This document shows, in pieces, positions 1,219 through 4,213 of a stretch of 4,350 bases of DNA. The first letter of the stretch is position 1. Each line of letters starts with the position of its first letter. The position numbers and the translations under genes were made by a program. Source of the DNA: a virus (Duplodnaviria > Heunggongvirae > Uroviricota > Caudoviricetes); IMG/VR virus record IMGVR_UViG_2778261594_000008, one strand, 5' to 3'. The notes beneath the pieces were generated by a model that worked only from the letters and a program-made list of their open reading frames with translations, did not search any database and was not told the origin of the DNA.

Positions 1219-1236
1219 TTTTTTTCGTGTTTTTTC

Positions 1237-1250
1237 AGTATGCGCATACT
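1237..1250. repeat. Perfect 14-bp palindrome AGTATGCGCATACT just after the int stop, preceded by two T-runs
   Basis: Read directly; reverse complement equals itself. Function unknown (protein binding site or hairpin). Confidence 0.5.
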
Positions 1251-1260
1251 GGATAAGTGC

Positions 1261-1310
1261 ACAGATACAACGTGAAACAATGTGCAACAACGTGACACAA
1301 TCACGAACAA
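1261..1310. repeat. Five tandem imperfect 10-bp direct repeats, each ending ACAA (consensus about CGTGAMACAA), exactly 10 bp apart
   Basis: Blocks acagatACAA / cgtgaaACAA / tgtgcaACAA / cgtgacACAA / tcacgaACAA. Helical-turn phasing suggests cooperative binding on one DNA face (excisionase, integrase or Rep-like). Confidence 0.7.
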
Positions 1311-1401
1311 GAGGCCAAAAAGAATACAGATTTGTAAGCTACTGATTTTTAATGCTCAGCTGGTTTTTTATACATTAGTGAATTACGCGTTAAAGTGTGC
1401 G

Positions 1402-1438
1402 AAAAAAGGCATAAAACAAGATTTTATGCCTTTGTATT
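1402..1438 (+). terminator. Possible intrinsic terminator or bidirectional hairpin between int and the AlpA-family gene
   Basis: Stem GGCATAAAA (1408-1416), loop CAAGA, stem TTTTATGCC (1422-1430), followed by TTTGTATT and preceded by AAAAAA. The stem is AU-rich (3 GC pairs of 9), so strength is doubtful. Confidence 0.3.
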
Positions 1439-1520
1439 AACATGAATTTAAATGATTTTATCCTGATTATTCCTCTTTCTGTAAACCATGCGACACCAAC
1501 ATTTGCCAACTCTGAATCAT

Positions 1521-1560
1521 CCTGACACAATCAGACACATCCCAACGCAATAGAACACGA
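1521..1560. repeat. Second 10-bp-phased array: GACACAA (1524), GACACAT (1534), AACGCAA (1544), AACACGA (1554)
   Basis: Four related 7-mers at exact 10-bp spacing, 35-70 bp upstream of the AlpA-family start. Candidate promoter-proximal binding sites. Confidence 0.6.
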
Positions 1561-1592
1561 AATAACTCTTTAAGAAACGAAAGGGGGCAATA

Positions 1593-3150: not shown

Positions 3151-3198
3151 GTTGAGCACCCCTCATAAAAAACAAATGCAGTATGCAGGAAAAAAAAC

Positions 3199-3253
3199 AA
3201 GTGTTCAACACTTGACGTGTTTAACACCTCGATTTAAATTGGTGTTCAACACC
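3199..3253. promoter_or_regulatory. Divergent promoter region with three 11-bp palindromic operator-like sites GTGTT(C/T)AACAC
   Basis: Sites at 3201-3211, 3217-3227 and 3242-3252. Rightward promoter candidate TTGACG (3212-3217), 17-bp spacer, TAAATT (3235-3240). Leftward candidate TTGAAC (3208-3203 on minus), 17-bp spacer, CATACT (3185-3180). The operators overlap both. Confidence 0.5.
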
Positions 3254-3283
3254 TTATTTAGGCAAGGTGTAGAAACGACGAAA

Positions 3284-3310
3284 CCCCGCACTGTAGGAGC
3301 AGTAACGGGG
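3284..3310 (+). other. Leader hairpin (module 2 copy) in the 5' UTR of ORF A: CCCCG ... CGGGG with inner ACUG/CAGU stem, followed by TCTAACCAA
   Basis: Inverted repeat read directly; homologous to 2533-2566. Confidence 0.5.
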
Positions 3311-3342
3311 CTTCTAACCAACAACGTAAACGAGGAGCCGTT

Positions 3343-3767: not shown

Positions 3768-3993
3768 CATCCGTCCGGACGCAGCCGCCGAAGCCATCAT
3801 AACGCTAATGCATGCGCTGATTGATATTTCTGTTATTGCTGACAGGGCGCATAAGCACGCCACCAGTGAAACAGAATATGCTGGGGCTTTCGTTCCTCAT
3901 TCGCTGGCGGTTATGCAACTTAGTGCGGATATGGCACTGAATGAGGCAGGTAAAATTCTTACCGCAGATATTCAGAGGGTACGCCATGAATAA
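3757..3993 (+). CDS. Small hypothetical protein C (78 aa)
   Basis: ATG at 3757 with strong RBS GGAGGGG at 3744-3750, 6 nt upstream. Overlaps the end of ORF B by 11 nt. The track start at 3700 would overlap B by 68 nt. Confidence 0.55.
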   Translation: MCNNIRPDAAAEAIITLMHALIDISVIADRAHKHATSETEYAGAFVPHSLAVMQLSADMALNEAGKILTADIQRVRHE

Positions 3994-4213
3994 AATCCCT
4001 TTTGAAGTATTAATCCACTCTGAAAACGCATTAATTAAAGCGCGCGAAATGAATGCGTTGTTAATTAAATTAATTGAAGTGCCGGAAGGTGGTAAGGAAT
4101 CAGGTGCCTTAATGTTTGCAGCCATTCAGACATTACTATCGCCTGTTATTGATGAACTGGATAAGGCAATGGCAATTCACGAAAATAATAACGCGCCCCA
4201 CACCGGAGAATAA
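3986..4213 (+). CDS. Small hypothetical protein D (75 aa)
   Basis: ATG at 3986 with RBS AGAGGG 6 nt upstream. Overlaps the ORF C stop by 8 nt. Possibly related to B and C (shared ESGA-type motif between helices). Confidence 0.55.
   Translation: MNKIPFEVLIHSENALIKAREMNALLIKLIEVPEGGKESGALMFAAIQTLLSPVIDELDKAMAIHENNNAPHTGE

Follow-up and report, generated by a model that had tools for sequence, protein, structure and literature searches.

The viral DNA record IMGVR_UViG_2778261594_000008 (4,350 nucleotides, referred to below as the window) represents the left end of a phage-inducible chromosomal island (PICI) of the Gram-negative EcCICFT073 type, in which the integrase gene int is followed by alpA. 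The 374-bp spacer between the two genes carries an array of direct ACAA repeats with an exact 10-bp period (array 1), which is a real, strongly selected cis element, and arrays of the same repeat are found in both attachment-site (att) arms of the integrated element. By analogy with known excisionase-regulators it is reasonably probable that these ACAA arrays are the operators of AlpA, acting both as excisionase and as autoregulator. The design is the same as that of 186 Apl, P2 Cox, P4 Vis and KplE1 TorI and extends a known principle to a PICI family in which the sites have not yet been mapped.

AlpA has been described as the master switch of Gram-negative PICIs, islands that spread virulence and defence genes among enterobacteria. 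In the literature found, neither the DNA targets of AlpA nor the triggering of the alpA promoter by helper phages is defined, and no mapped binding site of a PICI AlpA was found there. The present analysis offers a conserved candidate operator, ACAA every 10 bp, at four places: in both att arms, in the array of five to six units after int and in the alpA promoter region. The well-studied EcCICFT073 has the same arrangement, so the idea of a dual excisionase/autoregulator is testable with existing constructs, and the defined cis element may serve in the search for the helper-encoded inducer. Two further features of the spacer, a second repeat array (array 2) and a palindrome, are secondary to array 1 and its att copies.

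Array 1 and its copies in the att arms

Array 1 occupies positions 1261-1310 (+ strand) and consists of five 10-bp units, NNNNNNACAA, with the consensus of about CGTGRAACAA; its exact phasing, conservation and recurrence in the att arms make it the proposed high-affinity AlpA operator array. The first-pass annotation, made from the window alone, had described five units at exact helical-turn spacing and this proved correct to the base, with ACAA starting at 1267, 1277, 1287, 1297 and 1307. Tandem Repeats Finder reported a period of 10 at array 1. Of 500 shuffles of the window with dinucleotide counts preserved, none produced the same 4-mer five times in a row at a constant spacing of 8-13 bp; the best result was four, reached once. 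For comparison, 41 distinct homologous int-alpA spacers were taken from E. coli genomes and IMG/VR contigs; relatives of the spacer are recognisable in 878 of 5426 complete E. coli genomes with 69-100% identity, and a phage genome collection gave no match to the window. The repeats are present in all 41 of these syntenic regions, always as five or six units, counting one array with a single ACCA unit, which in that group of relatives cuts the exact run to three.

Selection acts on the ACAA motif itself. Among 15 distinct arrays one of the 20 ACAA columns is variable vs 29 of the 30 columns of intervening bases (Fisher p = 1e-11), and the mean pairwise difference per site is 0.007 in ACAA vs 0.396 in the intervening bases, where right-anchoring of five- and six-unit arrays may inflate the variability figure. 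A MAFFT alignment of 12 diverse spacers, for which the motif was not used, likewise gave invariant ACAA columns at 10-bp phase and six varying bases between them. Array 1 of EcCICFT073 has six ACAA units. The array of locus L010 contains an internal 20-bp duplication (TAAGCTACAACAAGGAACAA repeated) and this, together with the length polymorphism of the alpA leader described below, suggests that the arrays evolve by slippage or duplication of units.

A 96% identical copy of the window was found in E. coli RM10466 (locus L001) as part of an element of approximately 12 kb inserted inside tqsA. When the whole RM10466 element was scanned on both strands for phased ACAA, only two places were found besides array 1, both on the opposite strand, i.e. 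array 1 is inverted relative to the att-arm arrays. In the attL arm, just upstream of int, TTGT starts at 11887, 11899, 11909, 11919 and 11929 and is followed by the tandem doublet GGTGTAGTCACTGGTGTAGTCAC (11942-11964), so that the array sits between the putative crossover core ATAACAGCA (11805-11813) and the doublet. In the attR arm TTGT starts at 23798, 23808 and 23818; the doublet GGTGTAGTCACTGGTGTAGTTA (23841-23862) comes next, and the core copy (23937-23945) lies about 90 bp further on. The number of units is four to five in attL and three in attR. The full 10-bp unit common to the att arms and array 1 is TTGTTTCACG, the reverse complement of CGTGAAACAA, and the two-unit 20-mer CGTGAAACAACGTGAAACAA, sought with up to three mismatches in the 28-kb locus, matched only attL, array 1 (twice) and attR, with a chance expectation of 0.01. 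Each of the 11 relatives checked shows the attL arrangement, and in EcCICFT073 it is present at both ends. The attL array is located outside the window because the window probably derives from a predicted-prophage contig cut at int; several IMG/VR contigs (e.g. L040 and L029) start at or very near the int start and have the arrays at the coordinates of the window. A scan of viral contigs for the five-unit ACAA pattern returned mostly unrelated low-complexity matches, many of them in giant-virus bins, along with homologous PICI contigs.

The selection on exact ACAA with free intervening bases, and the recurrence of the whole unit only at the att arms and array 1, argue for base-specific recognition. 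They speak against sequence-directed bends and against binding by host nucleoid proteins (H-NS, Fis, IHF), which would shape the att arms and silence the AT-rich spacer. The base composition would suit such a role, as the spacer has 30-40% GC vs about 50-55% in the flanking genes and array 1 lies in its AT-rich part; phased T-tracts precede array 1 and, by inspection, an IHF-like sequence TATCAACAGATTT adjoins the attL array. We regard this explanation as distinctly improbable.

The gene int (1-1218, + strand) encodes a P4-type tyrosine integrase of 405 amino acids with an N-terminal arm-DNA-binding domain (Pfam Arm-DNA-bind_3, E=9e-19; Phage_integrase, E=2e-16), in line with the RefSeq annotation of the homologous element. 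Binding of integrase to its arms was among the roles initially put forward for the repeats, which in this case would be extra arm-type sites for the integrase N-terminal domain, used in intasome assembly and integrase autoregulation. The presence of the arm-binding domain, the location of the arrays within the att arms beside other repeats, and the autoregulation of the P4 and KplE1 integrases via arm sites (PMC2951348) are consistent with it. However, the 12-bp tandem doublets are better candidates for arm sites and match the P4 annotation. They are present (GGTGTAGTCACT twice) in both att arms, about 144 and about 90 bp from the putative core, in L001, L002-L012 and the EcCICFT073 locus L260. 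The doublet reads GTCACT in elements integrated in tqsA and GTTAAT in those integrated in roxA and abgR (variant GGTGTAGTTAAT), and its type coincides with two versions of the integrase N-terminal domain, which are 80% identical with the changes clustered at residues 11-45; the rest of the integrase is 91-95% identical between the two types, two outliers excepted. AlpA is identical in members of both doublet groups and the TTGT arrays are unchanged. Since the doublets, and not the arrays, follow the integrase N-domain, the doublets (GGTGTAGTNANT) are probably the integrase arm sites and the arrays would belong to another protein. The 12-bp tandem organisation expected of arm sites is that of GGTGTAGTCACTGGTGTAGTCAC and not of the 10-bp arrays, whose five to six head-to-tail units are the signature of an excisionase filament (PMC7498355). 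Integrase is quite unlikely to be the protein served by the arrays.

A related doubled motif has been reported for helper-embedded PICIs (PMC10111431), and P4 and EcCIMP1 carry equivalent GGGGGCA/GGGGGTA doublets. The doublet core AGTCACT is also the core of the lambda arm-type site: attL of the RM10466 element (L001 11929-11960) reads TTGTGCAACGATCGGTGTAGTCACT and the P' arm of lambda attP (L263, about 291-313) reads TTGTTGCAACGAACAGGTCACTAT, a likeness that may reflect coincidence or shared ancestry of the arm region.

AlpA as the proposed excisionase and autoregulator

The gene alpA (1593-1781, + strand) starts with GTG and encodes a 62-amino-acid winged-helix protein of the AlpA/Vis family (Pfam Phage_AlpA, E=5e-18). 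AlpA and P4 Vis both match Pfam PF05930 (Phage_AlpA), and P4 Vis is annotated as an excisionase and transcriptional regulator. The AlphaFold2 model of AlpA (predicted local distance difference test, pLDDT, 87) comprises a winged helix only and has as its best match in the PDB the GIsul2 excisionase 8c3t (template modelling score, TM, 0.83), followed by RdfS, Pukovnik Xis, TorI and BldC. With alpA the element has its own candidate gene for a small winged-helix excisionase. According to the literature AlpA is needed for induction and transfer, and its overexpression drives int-dependent excision.

It has been shown that excisionase sites are direct repeats one helical turn apart, three adjacent sites being needed for efficient binding (PMC7498355), and that Cox boxes lie 10-11 bp apart upstream of the P4 promoter PLL (PMC3936717). 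Known excisionase-regulators use such repeats both at att and at a distant promoter (PMC7498355, PMC3936717, PMC2951348). In spacing and unit number array 1 corresponds to such operators (direct repeats at 10-11 bp, at least three adjacent units). An excisionase/Vis-type function, one of those proposed at the outset, is supported by the phased units at attL and attR beside the doublets, by the membership of AlpA in the Pfam family of P4 Vis together with its excisionase-fold model, and by these precedents.

In the proposed mechanism AlpA would be the excisionase (recombination directionality factor) of the element and would also control the operon that encodes it. If AlpA behaves like Xis, Cox, Apl, TorI and RdfS, each helical turn would take up one monomer, head to tail with the next, and runs of three or more units would support the cooperative growth of a polymer that bends or wraps the DNA. 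At attL and attR the AlpA filament would shape the excisive intasome, and array 1 together with the weak array 2 would couple the AlpA concentration to alpA transcription, giving positive autoregulation. The favoured route is one in which the filament on array 1 would wrap or remodel the AT-rich spacer (30-40% GC) or counter its silencing. Alternatively, AlpA might activate a weak promoter-like site with the -10 sequence TACATT (1371-1376); array 1 would then occupy about -65 to -115, nearly where the cox boxes are found at P4 PLL. This site, just downstream of array 1, reads TTTAAT, 17 bp, TACAYT in 37 of the 41 relatives and has a poor -35 sequence, and there may be a promoter at this place.

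Positive autoregulation by AlpA has been measured in EcCICFT073 and EcCIMP1. The former, located beside roxA in strain CFT073, has the layout of the RM10466 element and near-identical int-alpA DNA. With locus L009 it shares the Int and AlpA proteins, its AlpA having the accession WP_000953274, and the int-alpA DNA of the two differs by one base. To judge from these sequences, EcCICFT073 is a member of the family of the window element. Its PalpA-lacZ fragment was activated by AlpA supplied from pBAD in a strain without phage or island, and helper phage induced it as well (PMC6092414). By means of the published primers (PMC6092414 supplement) we mapped the insert of the PalpA-lacZ plasmid pJP2038 to L260 4128-4583 (456 bp), corresponding to CFT073 1379127-1379582; it starts with the last 33 bp of int, ends with 58 bp of alpA and in between contains array 1, a hairpin, the promoter and array 2. 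The suggested link of the repeats to the control of alpA is thereby sustained indirectly, as the AlpA-activated fragment contains both arrays. A fragment of EcCIMP1 from -449 to +50 is likewise activated by AlpA and induced by the helper (PMC11773190).

Several points weigh against AlpA as an operator-bound activator. Binding is deduced from co-occurrence, conservation and analogy. Between array 1 and the predicted alpA start downstream of it there are about 230-275 bp and a probable hairpin terminator, an unusual placement for the site of a direct activator. Among relatives array 1 is 170, 171, 173 or 182 bp away from the promoter region, so that its helical phase with the promoter is not strictly kept. 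In array 2 the single strong unit overlies the -10 hexamer; a protein bound there should repress, in contrast to the activation that has been published. AlpA left the expression of EcCICFT073 Pint-lacZ unchanged (PMC6092414); the published primers of this construct could not be placed on the CFT073 sequence, and it may or may not have included the attL array. EcCIMP1, which has another type of integrase and AlpA, is without a phased array between int and alpA and has there a single copy of a motif common to its att arms. In distant relatives both Int and AlpA differ, and the change of motif does not separate the two proteins. These relatives, with AlpA 53-61% identical, have a phased attL array adjoining the doublet, with another motif, GTTCG three times in L016 (845-874; the core sequence of TorI sites) and GTTCA in L022 (about 168-200). 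Their AlpA recognition helices differ, and they carry an extra gene between int and alpA and no array before alpA. A survey of AlpA-motif covariation in other genera (three loci from a scan of genome contigs, 19 proteins) was non-discriminating, as Int and AlpA change together in distant relatives.

In EcCIMP1 (L020) a TCTACTAAAGTC-like motif was noticed at 20572-20583, 20635-20646, 673-684 and 19249-19260, with two copies in attL, a copy in attR and another some 40 bp past the int stop codon. This placement echoes the layout in which the att motif is repeated after int; the count of the motif TACTAAAGT in EcCIMP1 with up to three mismatches was not above chance (13 observed vs 11.9 expected).

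The induction experiments also bear on the possibility that the arrays dock a helper-phage protein, perhaps the helper excisionase, on array 1 or 2 to fire alpA, in which case AlpA may subsequently use the same sites. Helper phages induce alpA expression (PMC6092414) and do so without the SOS response (PMC6092414, PMC11773190), and the induction of EcCIMP1 persists in a ΔalpA mutant, the helper factor not being identified in the literature found (PMC6092414, PMC11773190). Cross-talk between PICI and helper excisionases has been reported (PMC11773190), and three cox-box-like repeats at 10 bp lie upstream of P4 vis, the homologue of alpA, where P2 Cox derepresses P4. On the other side, the arrays are also present at the element's own att arms, where the cognate factor is expected, and AlpA alone activates the fragment in a phage-free strain (PMC6092414). 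Lambda and phi80 both induce, yet they have different excisionases, and by inspection the array matrix picks up just one unit resembling a lambda Xis site. We consider a helper protein as the primary ligand unlikely but worth keeping in view; if true, this explanation would reveal where on the DNA the helper inducer of Gram-negative PICIs acts and would restrict the candidates for its identity.

Among known systems, the operators of 186 Apl and P2 Cox are similar to the proposed AlpA sites in being direct repeats at 10-11 bp with at least three adjacent units, located at att and at a distant promoter and bound by a filament that bends the DNA (PMC7498355, PMC3936717). Apl and Cox come from other sequence families and act mainly as repressors of face-to-face promoters, whereas the window element has an internal array 230-275 bp upstream of the predicted promoter, behind a hairpin, and the effect of AlpA is activation.

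P4, with which the element shares the PF05930 family, provides a parallel at the att site too. In the GenBank record the attP arm repeats are annotated as 12-bp tandem doublets that flank the core, and by inspection a 10-bp-phased triplet CCGAG/CCGTT/CCGGA (CCGnn; L262, about 3966-3995) abuts the int-proximal doublet at the place taken by the attL array in the window element; the triplet is possibly a Vis box. Upstream of vis there are three copies of GCTTTAAGTG at 10 bp (L262 9176-9205), annotated as 'ori type 2 repeats', which on the other strand fit the cox-box consensus TTAAA(G/C)NC(A/C) and were identified here with the published cox boxes (PMC3936717). In contrast to the arrangement proposed here, the known binder of these repeats is the Cox protein of the helper; the int gene of P4 is divergent and far from vis, P4 can exist in a plasmid state and has a late promoter of the Delta/Ogr type, and the motifs are unrelated in sequence.

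In KplE1 (CPS-53) TorI, one of the fold matches of the AlpA model, has five sites on attL (PMC2951348). Sites I3-I5 (GTTCG/GTTCG/GATCG) are spaced by exactly 10 bp, lie between the core and int and overlap the int promoter region (PMC2951348; sequence confirmed in K-12). KplE1 differs in that TorI falls under the Pfam AlpA threshold, torI is placed at the other prophage end and no internal regulatory copy of the array is known. The AlpA protein of Pseudomonas aeruginosa shares the name, a helix-turn-helix that reads a promoter-embedded element and a positive effect downstream (PMC9371919). It is much larger (its DNA-reading residues are 128-142), its N-terminal part enters the RNA exit channel, and one molecule acts on a single 6-bp element between -35 and -10 (PMC9371919), in contrast to the multi-unit arrays described here. 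Q-like antitermination by the AlpA of the window was rejected, there being no room for it in a protein of 62 amino acids.

The alpA promoter region, hairpin and palindrome

The predicted sigma-70 promoter of alpA (1503-1531, + strand) was found by consensus scan as TTGCCA, 17 bp, CACAAT, with TG upstream of the -10, and is the sole promoter-like site present in all 41 relatives (TTGCCA, 17 bp, (C/A)ACAAT), its spacer being constant in length and divergent in sequence. The inferred transcription start is at about 1538. Array 2 (1521-1560, + strand) is a series of degenerate CA-rich 10-bp repeats extending from the -10 into the 5' leader. With a matrix made from array 1 units only, its four units scored 10.8, 4.2, -0.7 and -1.5; their sum of 12.7 exceeds that at any position of the window outside 1180-1640 (maximum 4.2 among 7738 positions on both strands). 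Array 2 has only one or two good units. Only the first unit is conserved among the relatives, and as this unit coincides with the -10 hexamer its conservation is explicable by promoter function alone. The distance from the -35 to an invariant CTCTTTAAGAAA block downstream is 43, 53, 58, 63 or 73 bp, i.e. it changes in steps of 10 or 5 bp; the variation results partly from slippage of a 5-bp (CCCAA)n repeat, one lineage having a (CCCAA)2-5 microsatellite, and the phasing is not strictly kept. The four units had been presented in the first-pass annotation as a second array beside array 1: they exist as written, but their standing is lower, with one strong unit, which is also the -10, and a CA-rich leader of variable length. 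By its matrix scores array 2 is at most a possible low-affinity AlpA site and may simply be an unstructured CA-rich leader.

That array 2 is a plain CA-rich leader is quite possible and compatible with an AlpA-bound array 1. It is also part of an explanation at the RNA level, in which array 1 would be an element of the int 3' untranslated region, e.g. an A/C-rich motif for a protein or Hfq, and array 2 a CA-rich leader aiding translation from GTG. Array 1 is located between the int stop and a hairpin whose variants favour folding in + strand RNA, array 2 is in the predicted 5' leader and tolerates length changes, and P4 Vis has been proposed to act on int mRNA (cited in PMC2951348). Against this, the strict 10-nt period has no obvious meaning in RNA, and the att copies are opposite in orientation and outside the known transcript context; taken as a whole the explanation is very improbable.

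The hairpin is a perfect 12-bp inverted repeat, AAAGGCATAAAA / TTTTATGCCTTT (1405-1433, + strand), located between the two arrays and conserved with a compensatory series of A-U, G.U and G-C variants. As the G.U pairs form only in the + strand transcript, it is probably a terminator or 3' structure of int that would insulate alpA, although a cleaner T6 tract is present on the minus strand. A leftward small RNA ending at this T6 tract was considered and dropped: the sole minus-strand promoter-like site has a 19-bp spacer and is found in 26 of 41 relatives, and the G.U pairs fit the + strand only. The only match of the whole window in Rfam at E<=1 was a Brucella small RNA model over the hairpin; at 27.9 bits it stayed below the gathering score of 114, and the assignment was rejected.

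The 12-sequence alignment revealed two further conserved blocks at the spacer ends. Directly after the int stop there is a T-rich tract, T7-CGTG-T6 (1219-1236, + strand), invariant at nearly every position, and before the GTG start of alpA there is the invariant CTCTTTAAGAAA block with the Shine-Dalgarno sequence AAAGGGGG at 1580-1587 (block and ribosome binding site together 1566-1592, + strand). Between the T-rich tract and array 1 lies the palindrome AGTATGCGCATACT (1237-1250), which had been noted as perfect and is indeed one of two perfect 14-bp palindromes in the window. It is kept in 23 of the 41 distinct relatives, only in the five-unit group; it is absent from the other 18, including EcCICFT073, whose group has a sixth ACAA unit instead. 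From this distribution a functional role of the palindrome would at best be subgroup-specific.

Probable replication origin and downstream control modules

The RM10466 element has the gene order int, alpA, small divergent regulators, Icd-like genes, DUF927 primase, single-stranded DNA-binding protein (SSB), major capsid and decoration proteins, and small terminase. The co-orientation of int and alpA at the left end, the primase, the capsid genes, the small terminase, the size of about 12 kb and an integration site unused by prophages are as in Gram-negative PICIs. Just downstream of the DUF927 primase gene, at L001 18669-18986, there are about 12 copies of TAACCCGCA/TGCGGGTTA in both orientations. 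This region is probably the replication origin of the element, and the location of the TAACCCGCA repeats agrees with the published origin position in these elements. Binding of a replication initiator had been another of the initial suggestions. Iterons are typically short direct repeats spaced by a helical turn, and here they would be bound by the primase-helicase. The origin region carries the different iteron TAACCCGCA/TGCGGGTTA, unrelated in sequence, and is without an ACAA array; an iteron function of the ACAA repeats can be practically discounted.

Further downstream in the window two tandem divergent control modules were observed at 2450-2520 and 3195-3260, each with a near-consensus rightward promoter flanked by palindromic operators. 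The promoters are TTGACA, 16 bp, TATAAT (2459-2486) and TTGACG, 17 bp, TAAATT (3212-3240); the operators are TGTGTATATACACA at 2494 and GTGTTnAACAC at 3201, 3217 and 3242. It had been suggested that ACAC-containing half-sites similar to the array units recur in these operators, which was not confirmed: the operators are palindromic and do not score as phased ACAA arrays. Small leftward genes of the YlcI/YnfO family are found upstream.

Two paralogous GC-rich stem-loops (CCCCGC...GCGGGG-like) were also noticed at about 2525-2575 and 3283-3330, each followed by TCTAACCAA; they gave no Rfam match at E<=1. Each stem-loop lies between a strong promoter and a short Icd-like open reading frame, an arrangement reminiscent of the CI/seqA-type immunity RNA of P4.

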